Source: a virus (Duplodnaviria > Heunggongvirae > Uroviricota > Caudoviricetes). From it: 51,722 nucleotides of DNA. Below, in pieces: positions 41,201 to 49,885 of this stretch. Position 1 is the stretch's first letter; the number at the start of each line of letters is the position of its first letter. The stretch lies in the IMG/VR virus record IMGVR_UViG_2579778650_000023; one strand, given 5' to 3'. The position numbers and the translations under genes are program-made. Below the pieces are notes generated by a model that worked only from the letters and a program-made list of their open reading frames with translations, did not search any database and had not been told where the DNA came from.

Positions 41201-41803
41201 TTACGCGTTAAGAAGGGTCAGGACGCGTTCACGCGCCATACGTTGATTAATGGCTTTCTGTAGCGCGCCGCTGTTGCGCGCCTCCTGCCATGCTTTCATG
41301 GAGCGAACAGCCGAGTCAGCCTCCTGATAGGCAGGATATGTCACAGGACTGACATCCAGCAGACGGGAAAAGCGGGTTATCTCGCGAATAACAACCCCGT
41401 CCTCATCCTGATACCACTCCTCACCGTCACGGGCGACACGGAAAGCGAAAGATGACTGGTTAATATCTCCACGTTGCATCGGGGCCAGCACCAGATCACG
41501 AATGGTCTGTGTCTCCGGAGCCTGGATGTCATAGCGTAATCCGCGCTCATCAACTGAAAGATTCAGCGTGCCTGCTGCACTACGCCCAAGAATAAAATTA
41601 GGATCGTGGTTAAACAGTGCGCGTACATCATCACCAAGCACATCGTCAAAAGCGCCGGGCCGGATGATTTCGCGGAATGAACCGAATATCAGCTCAGAAC
41701 GACAGTCAAACACCGATCCATAACCGATAATGTGCGCCGGGTTATCGTCATGCCTCTCAGCACGCACCTCACCGCTGTAACAACGGATTTCACGGTCATT
41801 CAT
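41201..41803 (-). CDS. Prohead protease (HK97 family, peptidase U35/S78)
   Basis: Between the portal and capsid genes; start chosen at ATG 41803 with GAGGG Shine-Dalgarno (the six-frame ORF extends to 41860). Confidence 0.75.
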   Translation of the reverse strand: MNDREIRCYSGEVRAERHDDNPAHIIGYGSVFDCRSELIFGSFREIIRPGAFDDVLGDDVRALFNHDPNFILGRSAAGTLNLSVDERGLRYDIQAPETQTIRDLVLAPMQRGDINQSSFAFRVARDGEEWYQDEDGVVIREITRFSRLLDVSPVTYPAYQEADSAVRSMKAWQEARNSGALQKAINQRMARERVLTLLNA

Positions 41804-43022
41804 TGGTTTTTCCCTCATCGTTTTTTGGGGGCTTAAAATCTCCTGCCGGGTTAGCAGCATTCACGCTTACCAGCATCTCGTCCAGCCCTTCAACCGGATT
41901 CATATCCTCGAATGCGCGGGCCTCATTACGGCTCATCCATCCATCGGTAATAGCGAAGTGATAGAATTGCGCGCGCTCCTGCGGAGTTCCGCGTAAAAGC
42001 CCCGTCAGATTGAACCTGACGTAATACCCGGCGGCTAACTCAGCGCGGGTAAACAAGCGACGGTTAAGCTCCTGCTCCCAGTTCGTCACCCACGGCATCA
42101 TCGTGTAGCGGACAAACTGAATCGCCTGCGCAGAAATATTGGAGAAGGTGGCTTTTTCGAGGTCATTAATCATGTGCGCAGGAATATTGAAAATACCGGC
42201 GATCATTGAACGGTTCAGCTTCATCATGTCAATGATCTGAGCGTCAACTGGCGACACAGTCAGTGCCTTGTAATCCAGATCGGCTGGCAGCAGCATGGTT
42301 TTGTTTTCCTGGCGGCGTAACGCCTGCGATGCCTTCTGCCACTGATCTTTAAGCCAGCCCCAGCTTTCCTTATTGAGTCCGCTTTTAACGGATACTATCC
42401 CCGCCGGACGGGCATTACCGCTGAAGAAGCTTTCTGTGTACTTCTGACCGCTCATCCCCATGCCTATTGTTTCGGCATGTTGCATAATCGGACTCAGCCC
42501 CATCTTCTGATTATTACCCAGCGCACGGATGTGGATCATATCGTCCGGACTGATCGCAAACGCCCCATATTCGTTGTACAAACCGTAGGTATATCGGCCA
42601 CCAGTATTCATCAGCGTCGTTTCCCACGGCATACAGCAATCCAGGGATATAACTTCACCGCGACGATTACGTTTCACCCAGGTATACCCATTCCCCCAGC
42701 CAAGGATGTGACGTTGCTTCAGTTCGCGCCATTTGTAGCTGGTTTGCCAGGTATTGGGCTCATCATGAACCAGATAAAACGCCGGATGATCGCGTGCGGG
42801 TTCAACCTTCCCCTTGTGCCTGCGCATAACATGCAACGGCATCTGGGCAAGGCTGGAAGACAGGACATAGATACAGGAATACACCGCAGCCAGTTTCATC
42901 GCAGTCTCAGGACTGACATAAACGTCTGCCCGGAACAGCCCATCAGTATCAACGGCATCACCGGTTATCGGGGTGGAAGGATTCTCCAGTGATTTACTTC
43001 TGAACAGAGCATCAAGCAGCAC
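41796..43022 (-). CDS. Portal protein (HK97 family), probable GTG start
   Basis: (V)LLDALFRSK...AMKLAAVYSCIYVLSS resembles the HK97 portal N-terminus (MGLLDRLFGRK...); GGGGGA Shine-Dalgarno before GTG 43022; the longer six-frame ORF would overlap the upstream small ORF. Confidence 0.8.
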   Translation of the reverse strand: MLLDALFRSKSLENPSTPITGDAVDTDGLFRADVYVSPETAMKLAAVYSCIYVLSSSLAQMPLHVMRRHKGKVEPARDHPAFYLVHDEPNTWQTSYKWRELKQRHILGWGNGYTWVKRNRRGEVISLDCCMPWETTLMNTGGRYTYGLYNEYGAFAISPDDMIHIRALGNNQKMGLSPIMQHAETIGMGMSGQKYTESFFSGNARPAGIVSVKSGLNKESWGWLKDQWQKASQALRRQENKTMLLPADLDYKALTVSPVDAQIIDMMKLNRSMIAGIFNIPAHMINDLEKATFSNISAQAIQFVRYTMMPWVTNWEQELNRRLFTRAELAAGYYVRFNLTGLLRGTPQERAQFYHFAITDGWMSRNEARAFEDMNPVEGLDEMLVSVNAANPAGDFKPPKNDEGKTNE

Positions 43023-43173
43023 GCGTCCCCCTTCTGGCCATAGCCAGTGCGCCCACCAGCAGTAAAGCACCGGACAAAATCAGAGCCGGAGCCATACCAA
43101 ACTGCAGGTAAACCCCGCACGTAAGCAGGCCAAAACCAGCCAGCCCGATAACATCAGCAATTAGTGATTTCAT
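43012..43173 (-). CDS. Small hydrophobic membrane protein (53 aa, two predicted TM segments) between the terminase and portal genes
   Basis: Own translation: [53 protein letters not shown]; ATG overlaps the terminase large subunit stop. Confidence 0.35.
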
Positions 43174-44903
43174 AGAATTAAGAGATCATCGTCCGGATCA
43201 AGAGATGAGAGGAAATCGTCAGGTTCTTTGAGCATTGCCCGACCGATCGTCATAATCAGTGCAACCGCACCATCGATTTTGTTTTCCGCCTGCTCCTTGA
43301 CGGGCTTCACTAAATCATCGTTACCTGGCATGTTTTTGCCGACCACATTGCCGATACACCAGGTCATGATGGGATTGCCGTCATGATGAAAGCGTCCCGA
43401 TTCAATCGCTGCTTCCAGCTCTTTCATCGGATCGGACATATTGGCGAAGTTCTGGACGATAGTGACGGGATTCAGATCTTCATCAGCAAGGTCATGTGAC
43501 AGCCCGGTCGCCCCGAAGGGGTCGATGGGTGACTCACTGACCGGGCTGATTTTGTTCGCCGCTTTGGCCTCCTCGAGGATGTAGCGATAATCCACCTCTG
43601 CACCATCGGTAACGGTCAGGACGCCCATTTCCACCCATTTCTGAAAGCGTTCGGCTGTCCGTCTATCTTCATTTTTCTCGACGCTGTACACCGTGTCATA
43701 CGGTACCCAGAAGCGCGGGGCCACACTGTAGTAATGCGTTTTACCGTCAATCTCGCGGGTATAAAGTCGCGCCATGCTGTTCATATCCAGCTTACGCGCC
43801 AGGTCAAAGGCCAGAATGCACGGCTGCCCCTCGAACTGCTCAAGGGTCAGTGATTTATCCTCGCAGCTCTGCCAGCTCACCAGGTTGAAATACGCCGAAC
43901 GCGCCGACACCCAGATATTGAGGTGTTTTGTTTTAAAGACGTTTGCCAGACGGGCGTTATTTTTCGCACGCTGCTGCTGACTTAACAAAAATTCGCGATA
44001 AACCGACACGCCAATATTTGGATTGGCTTTTTCCAGCACCTGCGGGTCGGTCCAGTCGTCACCTTCATCAACGGTATAGATGATCCCGAACAGTTCATCG
44101 TTAGGCACCGAGCCGTTGAGCATCTCGATGACTTCCCGCCGCTTGTCGTAGCACGGCCCCTCAATGTTGTACCCGGCGGTGGTGATGGCCCACATCAGTG
44201 GCTGACGTCGCGCCCCCATCCCGGTAAGCATTGTGGTATAAAGCGCATCGGTGGCATGCTCGTGATATTCATCAACCACGGCACAGTGGGGTGATGAACC
44301 ATCACCTGGGTTGCCGATCAGCGGTTCAAACCGCGCGCCATCCTCCGGACGGTTCATGTTTGAGGCGTTAACCTCAATCCCGAACGCTTCCGTCAGCATG
44401 GGGGTGCGTTTACACATCAGTCGCGCCGGGCGAAAGACTTCCCACGCCTGTTTCTCTGTCGTGGCACCGGAATACACTTCCGCGCCGAACTCGTTATCAC
44501 AGGCAAAACAATACAGGGCAACACCGGCAGAGATTGCCGATTTGCCGTTCTTACGGGGGATTTCGGTATACACCTCCCGGAAGCGGCGCAGCCGGGACCC
44601 TTTATTGACCCAGCCAAACGCACAGCAGACCACAAATAGCTGCCACGGCTCCAGCGTGATGGGCATCCTCTTGAATGCCCACTCACCCTTGGTGTGCGGC
44701 AACAGCTGAATAAATTTGGCGGCCCGTTCAGCCAGGTCCTTGTCGAAGCGGTAACGAAACGACTTACTTTTTTCCGCCATCAGGTCATCAAGATGGCGCT
44801 GGCAGGCCTGAATCACAAACTGGCAGGCCACAATCTTTCCGCGCACGACATCACGGGCATACTGATTGGCAGCATTTACGTTGGGGTAAGATTTCCGGCT
44901 CAT
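43170..44903 (-). CDS. Terminase large subunit (577 aa)
   Basis: Terminase_1-type ATPase with an RNaseH-like nuclease C-terminal domain; follows the small subunit with overlapping stop/start. Confidence 0.9.
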
Positions 44904-45403
44904 GATTCGATAATTTTCAGAAACGGGTTAGTGGCTTTCTTCTTCCCCGCCAGGCCAATCAGACGCTGGCGGCTGCTGGGGTCGAGTCCGAGCATTGCCC
45001 CCGTACTGCTCATCTCGGACTCCTGTTCTTTTTTGGCAGTCAGCTCCGGATTTTTGACCCTGCCGCCCATTGCACCGGTGATGGTGTTGCCCTGTCTGGC
45101 AATATTTTTCACGGCACGTCGCCAGAACTCGTAGGCCACGCACCACCGCTCAAGCACCGCAAGGTCAGTCACGCACAGCAGGCCCTGACCGCAGAGTTCT
45201 TTAGTTGTCAGTTGCCACATGATCGTAGCGAGAGGGAGATCTTCTTCAGCGAACCACTCCGGTGGCTCAACACCTTTGATGGGCGTAAAAACAGGTTCAT
45301 CTTTATTCAGGGCTCGCTTGCCGGGGTTTCCGGCCAGCGCCTTGCGCGCCGTTGGCTTGGGGCGACGCCCGGAACGCCCCGCCGTTCCAGCCATATGCGG
45401 CAC
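44900..45403 (-). CDS. Terminase small subunit (P27 family-like, 167 aa)
   Basis: Basic N-terminus ([22 protein letters not shown]), immediately upstream of the large subunit. Confidence 0.75.
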
Positions 45404-45519: not shown

Positions 45520-45870
45520 TCACTTTAACCGTTCACGGGCCGTCTTCGCCTTATGGCAGGGCCAGCACAGACTCTGCAGATTACTGTCGGCATCAGTGCC
45601 GCCATGCGCTTTAGGAATGATGTGGTCAACGGTTTTCGCCTCACGCACCACACCAGCACGCAGACATAACTGACACAGGCCTTTGTCACGCTTCAATATG
45701 CGCACGCGGATACTGTCCCACTTCGAACCGTAGCCGCGCTGATGACGGGATTGTCCAGGTTTGTATTGCTTCCAGCCTTCGCTTTTGTGGCTTTCACAAT
45801 AGCCTGACGGATCTGTGGTGGTATGGCGGCAACCGCGAACACGGCAGGCTTTTGGGATTCGTGGCGGCAT
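45520..45870 (-). CDS. HNH endonuclease (packaging-associated, 116 aa)
   Basis: Cys-rich zinc-finger pairs (CRVRGCRH..., CQLCLR...) and H-N-H core (VDHIIPKAHGGTDADSNLQSLCWPCH); adjacent to the terminase genes. Confidence 0.85.
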   Translation of the reverse strand: MPPRIPKACRVRGCRHTTTDPSGYCESHKSEGWKQYKPGQSRHQRGYGSKWDSIRVRILKRDKGLCQLCLRAGVVREAKTVDHIIPKAHGGTDADSNLQSLCWPCHKAKTARERLK

Positions 45871-46918: not shown

Positions 46919-47380
46919 TTATTTCAGGCACTGAGCCCTGATGTACTCCTGCAGGTAGTTAACCTGCGCGGTTATCCTGTCTATTCCACTTCGGAGACGG
47001 TAATAATTGAGTTCAGCATCTGCTGTAAGTCTTGGGCTTTCTCCATCGCCCATGCTGCTGGCTCCGGTCGTTGACTTTGCACAGGTGGCGGAGACTTGCA
47101 GGCGCTTACGACCAGCAGAAACATCAGCACGGAGACTTTCGATAGTGGCGTTAGCATCAGCAAGCTCCTTTGTATATCTGGCATCGAGTTCTGCTACGTC
47201 ACGTTGACGCTTCTGCATATCAGAGATCGTCGCCATAGCCGAATCTAATGCCATAGCGTTTTCATCGCGCTGTTTTTTGTATTCAATGGCTTTATTGTGG
47301 TAATGATTAGCTGACCAGACAAGACCACCAGCAATACAAGCAATAAACGTTAAAATGAGCGCCCAATAACTCGTCTTCAT
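46919..47380 (-). CDS. Spanin, inner-membrane subunit (Rz-like, 153 aa)
   Basis: N-terminal TM segment (YWALILTFIACIAGGLVW), coiled-coil periplasmic domain; directly downstream of the endolysin gene. Confidence 0.8.
   Translation of the reverse strand: MKTSYWALILTFIACIAGGLVWSANHYHNKAIEYKKQRDENAMALDSAMATISDMQKRQRDVAELDARYTKELADANATIESLRADVSAGRKRLQVSATCAKSTTGASSMGDGESPRLTADAELNYYRLRSGIDRITAQVNYLQEYIRAQCLK
46981..47157 (-). CDS. Spanin, outer-membrane lipoprotein subunit (Rz1-like, about 58 aa) embedded out of frame within Rz
   Basis: MLTPLSKVSVLMFLLVVSAC lipoprotein signal with VSAC lipobox, then a Pro-rich mature part (KSPPPVQSQRPEPAAWAM...) resembling lambda Rz1. Confidence 0.65.
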   Translation of the reverse strand: MLTPLSKVSVLMFLLVVSACKSPPPVQSQRPEPAAWAMEKAQDLQQMLNSIITVSEVE

Positions 47381-47991
47381 ACCAGCAGCGCCGCCCGCGC
47401 CTTGTTGTATCGAATCTTACGATCCTCAATACCGTTCAGACCGCCGTTAATGATGCGCGTAACACGATTAATATCGGCACCGTAGACCATGCAGCCTTTA
47501 GATGTGTAGAACCATGCAGCTGAGCGCGCGGCCTGTAGATCCTGCTCCAGTTGTTCAGGTGAAGTCACCAGATCTAACTTCAGCGCCGCGCCACAGATGC
47601 GATAATTATGGAGGCCAGTGATTTGAATTAATCCTCTACCGCGATATTTCCAGCCATCACCGGGTGCTTTGTTACCCAGCCGGTTGCTATACACAAGATT
47701 GGCAATAGCATCCTGACGAGCTGCATGTCCGGATGTTCTGCCAAGGGCATCAGCCTGCTGCTGTGTGATCCTCTTTCCGAACGTCGCCACAAGCGCAGAT
47801 GGTGTGTAGTTAAAATTTTCAACTACGGCGCTAAACCCCATCGACTCATGGCCTACCTGAGCAATAAACATTGCCTGATCCGCTGGTGCTGTAATGCCGA
47901 ATTCCTTCATCGCCGCATCAATGTGCGGAAACCAGCGCGCAGCCAGCCCGGCGCTAATACCAGCCGCCTTTTGAAATAATTGTTGGTTCAT
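47377..47991 (-). CDS. Endolysin, glycoside hydrolase family 19 (chitinase-like lysozyme, 204 aa)
   Basis: GH19-type motifs (FIAQVGHES, KYRGRGLIQITGLHNY); in the lysis cassette. Confidence 0.8.
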   Translation of the reverse strand: MNQQLFQKAAGISAGLAARWFPHIDAAMKEFGITAPADQAMFIAQVGHESMGFSAVVENFNYTPSALVATFGKRITQQQADALGRTSGHAARQDAIANLVYSNRLGNKAPGDGWKYRGRGLIQITGLHNYRICGAALKLDLVTSPEQLEQDLQAARSAAWFYTSKGCMVYGADINRVTRIINGGLNGIEDRKIRYNKARAALLV

Positions 47992-48272
47992 TAGTGCCTC
48001 AGATGATCAACCAGACGTGCAACGTTGCCTCTGACGGCCACCAGCACGGAAAGAAAAATAGTGTTCGCCACGATAATGGGCCATGAGGAATGAGGATAAA
48101 TCCCACAGAGATAGGCCAACGGAACAGCACTGTATGTAACAGTAATCAGCCAGGCTAAACGTGAAACCCAAGGACGATGCCGCGAATCACCACGACGATA
48201 AAACATCAGAGTAATAACAACACAAGCACATAACAGCGCATTTATAGTTGCTGTCGGGTCATTTAGCTCCAC
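47991..48272 (-). CDS. Membrane protein, putative holin/antiholin (93 aa)
   Basis: Multiple hydrophobic segments; immediately upstream of the endolysin. Confidence 0.55.
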   Translation of the reverse strand: MELNDPTATINALLCACVVITLMFYRRGDSRHRPWVSRLAWLITVTYSAVPLAYLCGIYPHSSWPIIVANTIFLSVLVAVRGNVARLVDHLRH

Positions 48273-48645
48273 CTGAACCTCCCCGGCGCGTTATGAGCGC
48301 CACCAGCGAGCCGATATCCTGATTATTCAGGAACGTCAGGATTTTAACGGCTAAAGCAGAGACGATTACGGCACCAATAGCATCCAGAGGTTTATCACTG
48401 TATCCGGTCAAGTTCGCCAGCTTGGAGCCAACCAACCCAGAGCAAAGAATCCCGGCAATATATGACACGATAAAATATGCCAGTCGGCGCGATGCACTCA
48501 GATCTGCTGCTGTTGCTATGTAGAATACAGCCCCTGCAAATGCGCCAAATACAACGCCGTAATCAGTTCCGGTCAGCAGTCCATAAACACTGGCACCCGT
48601 CAGGGCACCACCAGCCAGCCCAGTACCGGAAATCGGATCGGACAT
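48259..48645 (-). CDS. Putative holin (LydA-like, 128 aa)
   Basis: Gly/Ala-rich multi-TM protein; first gene of the lysis cassette. Confidence 0.55.
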   Translation of the reverse strand: MSDPISGTGLAGGALTGASVYGLLTGTDYGVVFGAFAGAVFYIATAADLSASRRLAYFIVSYIAGILCSGLVGSKLANLTGYSDKPLDAIGAVIVSALAVKILTFLNNQDIGSLVALITRRGGSGGAK

Positions 48646-49132: not shown

Positions 49133-49885
49133 TTATCTCGTCACTTTTCTTAATTGCGCCTCAGCATATGCTTCTTCCTGCCAGCACTTTGTCACCAGTT
49201 TATCAATGACATCTGCATATCCTTTGTACCACTGATAATCCGTCAGGTCTGGTACCAGCTTCTGGACATGATGCCGCGCCAGTGTGGTTGGCAAACGGCT
49301 AAACCGGTTTCCATTGCAACGCCCACAAATCTTATAAACAGGCGTGCCATGAAGCCGGGTTCTTTTTTCATCCAGGACAATACCTTTACCCTTACACCCT
49401 CTGCACGCTGTGCTGACTTCTCCCTTACCATGACAATGCTGACATAGTTCCTTCACCCACTCTTCCTTGATAACAGATTCCCCGCTTCTGGAGTGTTTCA
49501 CCACTTCGCGCAATACATTATGAAATCCAGTACCAGCACAATGCTCACAGCGAGCCTTACTTGCCGCAGACCTGGAATAATCAGCAAAGGCAAAATTCAC
49601 AAGGTAAGGGATGAGCTGTAACCGGGTTTCTTCACTCAATTTATTCAATGTCGGATTATCCAGTGCCATCGCGTAATTGAGCAGACCTTCAATCGCAAAC
49701 TGAGGATCCTGAACACCAACTTTTGCCAGGAATAAGGCAAATCCAAGCGGTGCTTTCGACTGCACCATCCCCTGCGCAGCCATCACATCCGTAATCGTTA
49801 AACCACCCGAGCCTGTCGCCGGTGCGTCATCGCTCAGTTTTGGAGATTTTGGGGAGTAATATTTTGGTAAGGCTTCAAGGTTCAT
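49133..49885 (-). CDS. Late-gene antitermination protein Q (lambdoid Q family, 250 aa)
   Basis: Cys-rich zinc-binding region (CEHCAGTG...CQHCHGKGE...CRGCKGKG...CGRCNG) typical of Q antiterminators; located just upstream of the lysis genes. Confidence 0.75.
   Translation of the reverse strand: MNLEALPKYYSPKSPKLSDDAPATGSGGLTITDVMAAQGMVQSKAPLGFALFLAKVGVQDPQFAIEGLLNYAMALDNPTLNKLSEETRLQLIPYLVNFAFADYSRSAASKARCEHCAGTGFHNVLREVVKHSRSGESVIKEEWVKELCQHCHGKGEVSTACRGCKGKGIVLDEKRTRLHGTPVYKICGRCNGNRFSRLPTTLARHHVQKLVPDLTDYQWYKGYADVIDKLVTKCWQEEAYAEAQLRKVTR

Follow-up and report, generated by a model that had tools for sequence, protein, structure and literature searches.

Several phages carry a small gene in the slot between the gene for the large terminase subunit (terL) and the portal gene. 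In phage lambda, the slot between terminase gene A and portal gene B holds the small gene for gpW. In the phages SfII, SfIV, and ST64B, and in the e14 remnant in E. coli K-12, the terL-portal slot encodes a 60-amino-acid (aa) protein with two transmembrane (TM) segments, which is annotated as "membrane protein." (It goes by the names YmfR in e14, Sb3 in Salmonella phage ST64B, and SfII_03.) In contrast, HK97 has no gene in this slot, which lies between gp2 and gp3. For a link between the portal and the membrane, the precedent is T4, in which portal initiation is membrane-bound and involves gp20, gp40, and YidC (PMC9958956).

Here, we consider the terL-portal slot in a 51,722-nucleotide (nt) stretch of viral DNA (IMG/VR record IMGVR_UViG_2579778650_000023). 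We will refer to the whole stretch as the window; it is an SfV-like prophage. The slot holds a small gene of 53 codons at 43012..43173 on the minus strand. We are confident that this gene encodes a late inner-membrane hairpin, that its sequence is under selection, and that it is stably inherited with the portal.

A conserved gene for a small membrane protein

An earlier note on this DNA, which was made from the letters alone, had proposed an open reading frame (ORF) of 53 codons on the minus strand, with an ATG that overlaps the terminase stop. Both the sequence and the translation agree, with the ORF running from 43173 to 43012. Its ATG (43173-43171) shares bases with the TGA of terL (43172-43170) to form an ATGA overlap (43170..43173, minus strand). 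Besides the ORF and its translation, the gene is identified by a coding sequence from the Prokaryotic Genome Annotation Pipeline (PGAP), by a match to the protein family phrog_7105, by the ratio of nonsynonymous to synonymous substitution rates (dN/dS), and by controls with the other reading frames.

First, the reading frame and its start are conserved in related prophages. Among the closest 80 of the 327 related loci that we found in IMG/VR, all 80 keep the 53 codons, the ATG/TGA overlap, and the GTG start of the portal gene. (These 80 loci include 28 distinct DNA sequences and 17 distinct proteins.)

Second, the changes in this gene are mainly synonymous. Across 12 diverged copies (62-98% protein identity), the median dN/dS is 0.19 by the Nei-Gojobori method, with the synonymous sites being near saturation. 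In the same copies, the numbers of variable columns at the three codon positions are 28, 18, and 43. Both of the checks that the note had suggested, for conservation of the frame and start and for the pattern of substitutions, thus came out in favor of the gene.

Third, the other reading frames do not behave like coding sequence. In a gap-free set of 11 relatives, the annotated frame is the only one that is open in all of them. The shifted frames have stops in 10/11 and 8/11 sequences, and the three reverse frames have stops in 10-11 of 11. Similarly, the ratio of nonsynonymous to synonymous differences (pN/pS) is 0.40 in the annotated frame, as compared to 0.89 and 1.86 in the shifted frames. 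By amino-acid divergence (pN), the small protein (0.28) is intermediate between the portal (0.17) and TerL (0.35). The GC content of the small gene (0.549) is close to that of its neighbors (0.540 and 0.518).

We conclude that 43012-43173 (minus strand) is a genuine gene, and that selection acts on the peptide itself, beyond the mere act of translation. The conserved frame and the mainly synonymous changes also support the note's broader proposal that a small membrane protein with two TM segments is encoded between terL and the portal.

The 53-aa protein is strongly hydrophobic, with a grand average of hydropathy (GRAVY) of 1.25. When given an alignment of 99 family members, AlphaFold predicts helices at residues 2-25 and 27-48, which are joined at G26 (mean predicted local distance difference test score, pLDDT, of 89.9). 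The hydrophobicity and the two TM-like segments that had been noticed in the sequence therefore hold up. We predict that the protein forms a tight helix-turn-helix hairpin in the inner membrane. Among the 99 members, 80% have lysine or arginine in the N-terminal stub and 97% have it in the C-terminal stub, versus just 28% in the turn, so both ends are predicted to be cytoplasmic (N-in/C-in).

We also considered whether this might be a gpW-type protein, which would be a soluble alpha/beta protein of ~68 aa. Whereas gpW is a soluble head-completion protein, the 53-aa protein is a hydrophobic (GRAVY 1.25), all-helical hairpin, with no hit in Pfam.

The family and its relation to YmfR/Sb3

This gene is already known, in that it is catalogued as a hypothetical protein and has a matching family in PHROGs. 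PGAP annotates an identical protein at the identical place in E. coli FDAARGOS_1059 (WP_000838376.1, "hypothetical protein"). The 53-aa protein has no differences from the sequence in WP_000838376.1, phrog_7105, and RAST FIG00643696, and none of these entries has a function. The match to phrog_7105 ("unknown function") has E = 3.2e-22 and 79 bits and aligns residues 1-52 to positions 1-52 of 52. Two divergent relatives (P0026 and P0027) match phrog_7105 equally well. Membership in this family is supported by the full-length match to its hidden Markov model, by the conserved hairpin of ~50 aa, and by the location in the terL-portal slot of a head module of the P27-terS/HK97 type. Copies of the gene are also labelled as hypothetical proteins in the phages Evi, F1055, Dina, IME1369_02, K396, and Ssp-JY37. 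The description of the ORF as unannotated is thus correct for the SfV records (U82619/NC_003444) only; it does not hold for E. coli genomes annotated by PGAP, for other phage records, or for PHROGs.

Searches of other resources were uninformative. The 53-aa protein has no match to any Pfam family at E ≤ 1, and a Pfam scan of YmfR did not help either. Neither protein has an NCBIfam hit of note, and neither matches any PADLOC family (0 families at E ≤ 1 for both). With the AlphaFold model as the query, Foldseek returned no hits in BFVD or PDB at E ≤ 0.001, as expected for a bare hairpin. An anti-phage defense protein was therefore rejected as a candidate, given the absence of PADLOC families at E ≤ 1.

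The family is large. We found 27 close homologs of the 53-aa protein, and a profile built from 21 homologs, when compared to 1.84 billion representative proteins, matched 140 clusters (at 50% identity) with E ≤ 1e-3. Nearly all of these clusters have proteins of 45-60 aa that match over their full length. The 99 members in our alignment span 30-70% identity and conserve specific residues: four glycines (G13 in 97%, G20 in 97%, G26 in 94%, and G35 in 100%), an acidic residue at position 7 (Asp in 82% and Glu in 7%), Tyr or Trp at position 22 (78%), an aromatic residue at F25 (84%), and the leucines L23 (74%) and L31 (80%). The C-terminus is basic across the alignment.

In every genomic context that we examined, the gene order is terS (of the P27 family), terL, the small gene, and the portal. 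These contexts include enterobacterial prophages, metagenomic contigs (among them, three members at 30-40% identity), Escherichia phage Evi, Salmonella phage F1055, Ralstonia phages such as Dina, Vibrio phage K396, Morganella phage IME1369_02, and a "Synechococcus" phage (Ssp-JY37). The family is thus found in phages of Enterobacterales, Vibrio, and Ralstonia, as well as in marine phages. The earlier note had remarked that small membrane proteins are uncommon in packaging modules. This turned out not to be so for these phages: in every relative we examined, the slot is filled by this family or by YmfR/Sb3, and HK97 is the exception. In one locus (L109, 3501-5267 and 5260-6111), a member with ~30% identity lies between terL and an unusually long portal (528 aa), and the protease that follows is of the S49/ClpP type instead of S78. 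The mini-protein is thus not restricted to a single type of protease.

We also noticed a 131-aa database protein (P0031) in which the first ~38 residues of a family member are fused to the portal frame (...GVLLLFLRWWPQGGNMLLDTLF...). A fusion of this kind requires a 1-nt frameshift in the metagenomic contig, which probably reflects misassembly or a pseudogene rather than programmed frameshifting. More generally, we rejected frameshift fusions of terL with the small ORF, or of the small ORF with the portal, as no slippery heptamer is conserved upstream of the overlaps.

We then compared the 53-aa protein to YmfR/Sb3, which has the same slot, the same size class (60 aa), and the same two-TM hairpin design. 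The 53-aa protein matches YmfR's family, phrog_502 ("membrane protein"), with E = 5.7e-6 and 26.8 bits, and the TM composition may inflate this score. (For comparison, YmfR itself matches phrog_502 with E = 2.5e-28, and its cross-hit to phrog_7105 has E = 0.022.) An alignment of the two families by hhalign covers 51 columns with a probability of 94.6% and E = 6.8e-8, a score that may be similarly inflated. The two families have in common the patterns G-xx-G-x6-G-x-[YW]-L-x-[FY]-[GP] in helix 1 and G-x-L-x-L...A-R in helix 2. Also, in both cases the Shine-Dalgarno (SD) sequence of the portal is encoded within the last Gly codons of the small gene.

On the other hand, the identity between YmfR and the 53-aa protein is just ~29% at the profile level, and they differ in several ways. 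YmfR lacks the conserved N-terminal Asp and has a longer polar C-terminal tail that ends with GG[ED]. The turn is I-Y-P-P in the YmfR family and Q-F-G in the 53-aa protein. Unlike the 53-aa gene, ymfR comes with an SD of its own, and a gap of 11 nt separates it from terL. The portal that accompanies YmfR-type proteins has just 27% identity, and the TerL tail is different as well. Of the positions that are invariant in YmfR (P8, the I-Y-P-P turn, C38, W41-S42-W43, and the C-terminal GG), the 53-aa protein lacks P8, C38, and WSW, and it has the Q-F-G turn. Because these invariant residues are missing, we consider the 53-aa protein to belong to a sister family and not to be a member of YmfR's. 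Overall, the profile comparisons suggest that the two families are probable remote homologs, with the proviso that TM composition inflates such scores.

A literature search turned up no functional study of ymfR, Sb3, or small membrane proteins near terminase or portal. Expression data is available for ymfR, whose mRNA rises by ~23-fold (log2 of 4.52), together with other e14 genes, in an SOS-inducing treatment (PMC10012262). In e14 (L017, 1695-3432), the terL and portal genes beside ymfR are truncated pseudogenes, and the 60 codons of ymfR are intact.

The new elements here are the corrected start for the SfV portal (see below), the size and signature of the family, the probable homology to YmfR/Sb3, and the finding that the small gene is inherited along with the portal and the TerL tail.

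Co-inheritance with the portal and possible functions

We then examined how the small gene is inherited relative to its neighbors. Up to about residue 550, the body of the window's TerL is ~100% identical to that of SfII/SfIV. Beyond this point, the similarity to SfII is lost in the last ~25 residues of TerL, in the small gene, and in the portal, which has 27% identity. The mosaic junction with SfII-type phages is at ~43250-43270, or ~80 nt before the terL stop, and the part of terL that encodes the C-terminal tail (43173..43250, minus strand) is inherited with the small gene and the portal.

Mantel tests across 17 diverse loci agree with this. (We used Spearman correlations of pairwise identity and defined the TerL tail as the last 20 aa.) The small protein is correlated with the portal (r = 0.77, p = 0.0005) and with the TerL tail (r = 0.76, p = 0.0005), and less so with the TerL body (r = 0.35, p = 0.0275). 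Similarly, the TerL tail is correlated with the portal (r = 0.865, p = 0.0005) more than with its own body (r = 0.32, p = 0.0335), and the correlation of the TerL body with the portal has r = 0.22 (p = 0.11). In other words, the divergence of the small protein follows that of the portal and of TerL's last ~20 residues, not that of the TerL body.

Wherever this type of portal is present, the tail DFLSxLDPD[DE][DE]LLxL is found, on two unrelated TerL bodies (...IGRAMLKEP... and ...SRLLVNGG...). This motif is presumably a portal-docking tail. In lambda (gpA) and in T3/T7 (gp19), TerL docks onto the portal through its C-terminal tail, so the tail and the portal are co-adapted, and the small gene lies in the middle of this block. 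The linkage pattern fits a shared function, and hitch-hiking would give the same pattern.

Our working model, which we hold tentatively and which draws on an analogy with T4, is that the hairpin is embedded in the membrane and assists the portal/terminase step. Late in infection, it would be an inner-membrane accessory to the head module, acting there as a tether or chaperone for the packaging motor or for assembly initiated by the portal. Its copy number is probably low, judging by its translation signals. The hairpin's role would be analogous to that of gp40, a T4 factor that acts at the inner membrane on portal-initiated prohead assembly and aids the membrane-bound portal initiator gp20 (PMC9958956). 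This is an analogy only: similarity to gp40 in sequence or fold was neither detected nor expected, and the organization of the T4 module is unrelated. Because HK97 has no such gene, the mini-protein would be an accessory and not a universal component. If the family does work with the portal or terminase, then a membrane-associated step in head assembly or packaging would exist outside of T4.

Several points weigh against this model. First, the co-inheritance with the portal may be hitch-hiking between the co-adapted TerL tail and portal. Second, the conserved residues are mostly within the membrane, and the cytoplasmic parts have only ~6 and 7 residues; this would be no less compatible with self-association or a target within the membrane than with binding to a soluble portal or terminase. 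Third, HK97 has the same head architecture and has no gene in the slot, so the hairpin is not needed for HK97-type assembly in general. Fourth, we found no similarity to gp40 or to any characterized protein in Pfam, NCBIfam, PADLOC, or Foldseek searches. Finally, we infer the portal/terminase role, the translational coupling, and the low abundance all from sequence.

A broader form of this model is that the 53-aa family and YmfR/Sb3 are one ancient superfamily, integral to the TerL-tail/portal unit of many HK97-type phages, which would serve the portal or motor as an inner-membrane anchor or chaperone. We think that this is rather unlikely. If true, head initiation or packaging would be membrane-associated in these phages, as with gp20, gp40, and YidC in T4.

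Nearly as likely as the working model is another possibility, to which we would also give only tentative credence: that this is a late membrane mini-protein aimed at the host membrane, and that its adjacency to the portal reflects linkage only. It might, for example, modulate the timing of lysis (like an antiholin or pinholin), form a viroporin-like oligomer, block DNA entry during superinfection, or regulate a host complex. Several features of the protein are suggestive. The conserved glycines (G13, G20, G26, and G35) are within the membrane, on small-residue faces, and the segments outside of the membrane are tiny. The sister family phrog_502 is classified by PHROGs as "moron, auxiliary metabolic gene and host takeover." HK97's ability to build heads without such a gene, and the co-adapted block of TerL tail and portal that confounds the portal linkage, point the same way. 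Also, in P2-like phages, membrane genes for lysis control can sit stably inside structural operons.

Another of these features is the resemblance to class II holins or pinholins, such as S21 of phage 21: two TM helices, a predicted N-in/C-in topology, a helix 1 that is rich in Gly and Ala, and a basic C-terminus. However, the 53-aa protein is much shorter than these holins and has a turn of just 1-3 residues. Its gene lies outside of the lysis cassette and lacks its own SD, which implies low expression. The window already has a full lysis cassette (46919-48645), ~4 kb upstream of the small gene, with a Phage_holin_8 gene (48259-48645), a Phage_holin_3_7 gene (47991-48272), a GH19-type endolysin gene (47377-47991), and an Rz gene (46919-47380), all on the minus strand. 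As the small protein does not match any holin family (Pfam at E ≤ 1, NCBIfam, and Foldseek) and its gene is not beside the endolysin, a primary role as a holin seems unlikely.

Other evidence also argues against a target in the host membrane. The protein has no PADLOC hit, and the small gene lacks its own promoter, terminator, or SD. Whereas morons typically occur sporadically, this gene is a fixed and universal part of its module, and the induction of its homolog ymfR with the lytic genes does not suggest expression in the lysogen. In particular, a moron or superinfection-exclusion unit is a poor fit, given the lack of a promoter or SD, the universal presence, the GC content near that of the neighbors, and the induction of ymfR with the lytic genes of e14. 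Should the host membrane indeed be the target, the family would constitute a new class of phage mini-proteins that are expressed late. To distinguish these functions, SfV would be a tractable phage for study, and E. coli K-12 carries the homolog ymfR.

A third possibility is that the small ORF is mainly a translational coupling device that tunes initiation at the portal, with the peptide as a by-product. The arrangement of the signals does bring this to mind: the small gene has the ATGA overlap with terL and no SD, and the portal's SD and start lie inside its 3' end. In the window, the predicted duplex of the small gene with the anti-SD is ~0 kcal/mol, versus -10.8 for the portal. (In three relatives that use GTG as the start, the duplex for the small gene is ~-6 kcal/mol.) A 4-nt overlap with terL (ATGA or GTGA) is present in 13 of 18 diverse loci, and the others start at -20 to +11 nt from the stop. 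Because the small gene lacks an SD and shares its ATGA with the terL stop, it is probably translated by ribosomes that terminate on terL. Such termination-reinitiation would probably keep the abundance of the small protein low.

Nevertheless, we think that it is very unlikely that coupling is all there is to this gene. The purifying selection on amino acids (dN/dS of 0.19), and the conservation of residues across 99 members at 30-70% identity, from Ralstonia to Vibrio, would not be expected for a by-product. The portal has its own strong SD, with a duplex energy of -9 to -11 kcal/mol, and this SD is not sequestered by any RNA structure that we could predict (z = -0.48 for the minimum free energy). 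Furthermore, the YmfR lineage has its own SD and the 11-nt gap after terL, and HK97 couples terL directly to the portal without such an ORF.

As for other expression signals, a promoter scan found no promoter-like site on the minus strand within ~500 nt upstream of the small gene. A weak terminator-like hairpin within the small ORF (43103-43119, minus strand) was at the chance level in a terminator scan. The SfII record (NC_021857) has an annotated "putative rho-independent terminator" at 2370-2419, inside the YmfR-like gene. We saw no sign that either of these is functional.

The portal start and the prophage setting

The portal gene starts at a GTG (43020..43022, minus strand), which gives it an 11-nt overlap with the small gene. 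After this GTG (43022-43020), there are 5 nt (CTGCT) and then the TGA of the small ORF (43014-43012) (GTGCTGCTTGA). The earlier note had these two in the opposite order, with the stop 5 nt before the portal GTG; when we inspected the sequence, we found no GTG downstream of the small ORF's stop. The note was right that the six-frame portal ORF is extended at its N-terminus. That ORF spans 41796..43070 (424 aa), and PGAP's portal begins at 43022 (408 aa).

Comparison to the relatives clarifies which start is correct. The position of the portal start reads ATG in six relatives (L007, L009, L011, L015, L020, and L021) and GTG elsewhere. The portal frame has stops 3-5 codons upstream of this conserved start in L011, L012, and L014. 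The upstream GTG at 43070 is absent even from an O157:H7 prophage that is 96% identical (L003). All of the relatives have AGGGGG or GGAGG 4-8 nt upstream of the start, and in nearly all of them the duplex with the anti-SD is at -7 to -11 kcal/mol. In the window, this SD is AAGGGGG (43027..43033, minus strand), within the Arg-Arg-Gly codons at the C-terminus of the small gene, and it is conserved in relatives. Because the last codons of the small gene also carry the portal's SD and start, they are conserved as Arg-Gly or Gly-Gly codons. In the 408-aa form, the Pfam portal domain is reached 46 residues past the start. Given the alternation of GTG and ATG, the conserved SD, and the upstream stops in the portal frame of relatives, the true portal start is GTG 43022.

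It is therefore highly improbable that the region is the 5' part of the portal gene, or a spacer with a chance ORF, and not a separate gene. The window does have an open portal frame as far back as GTG 43070, and the SfV records annotate orf3 from the equivalent GTG, but that extension is closed by stops in three relatives, its GTG is missing in L003, the downstream start alternates between GTG and ATG with a conserved SD, the Pfam domain begins well past the short start, and the portal frame across the small ORF has pN/pS of 0.89 and stops in 10/11 relatives. Upstream stops, start conservation, and frame statistics thus led us to reject both of these explanations computationally.

In the SfV records (U82619/NC_003444), orf3 is annotated as 424 aa (NC_003444.1, 2392-3666), and the small gene is not annotated. 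By the above comparison, the SfV portal is over-extended by 16 codons (equivalent to 43023-43070). Both errors, the missing gene and the early portal start, can be fixed.

The test stretch 42700-43500 (801 bp) is 99.9% identical to Shigella phage SfV and 100% identical to a prophage in E. coli FDAARGOS_1059. At least 80% of it is present in 256 of 5,426 complete E. coli genomes. On the minus strand, the gene order is the antiterminator Q (49133-49885), the two holin-family genes, the GH19 endolysin, Rz, a KilA-N gene, an HNH endonuclease, terS (P27), terL, the small ORF, the portal, the S78 prohead protease, and the major capsid protein. As the small ORF lies downstream of Q and the lysis cassette in this order, it is inside the Q-dependent late operon. 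Its immediate neighbors are terL (43170..44903, minus strand; 577 aa), which was identified by the Pfam domains TerL_ATPase and TerL_nuclease and by annotation, and the portal gene (41796..43022, minus strand; 408 aa), which was identified by Phage_portal in Pfam (E = 3.3e-98), by annotations, and by the analysis of its start.

We also made some observations about the other genes. An ORF that is nested within Rz (46981-47184) may be Rz1. The HNH endonuclease gene (45520-45870, minus strand) is directly upstream of the P27-family terS (44900-45394, minus strand), and the arrangement HNH-terS-terL-portal-protease-capsid is typical of HK97-like cos packaging modules. For terS, PGAP uses an ATG start (164 aa), whereas the six-frame ORF begins at a GTG farther upstream (167 aa).

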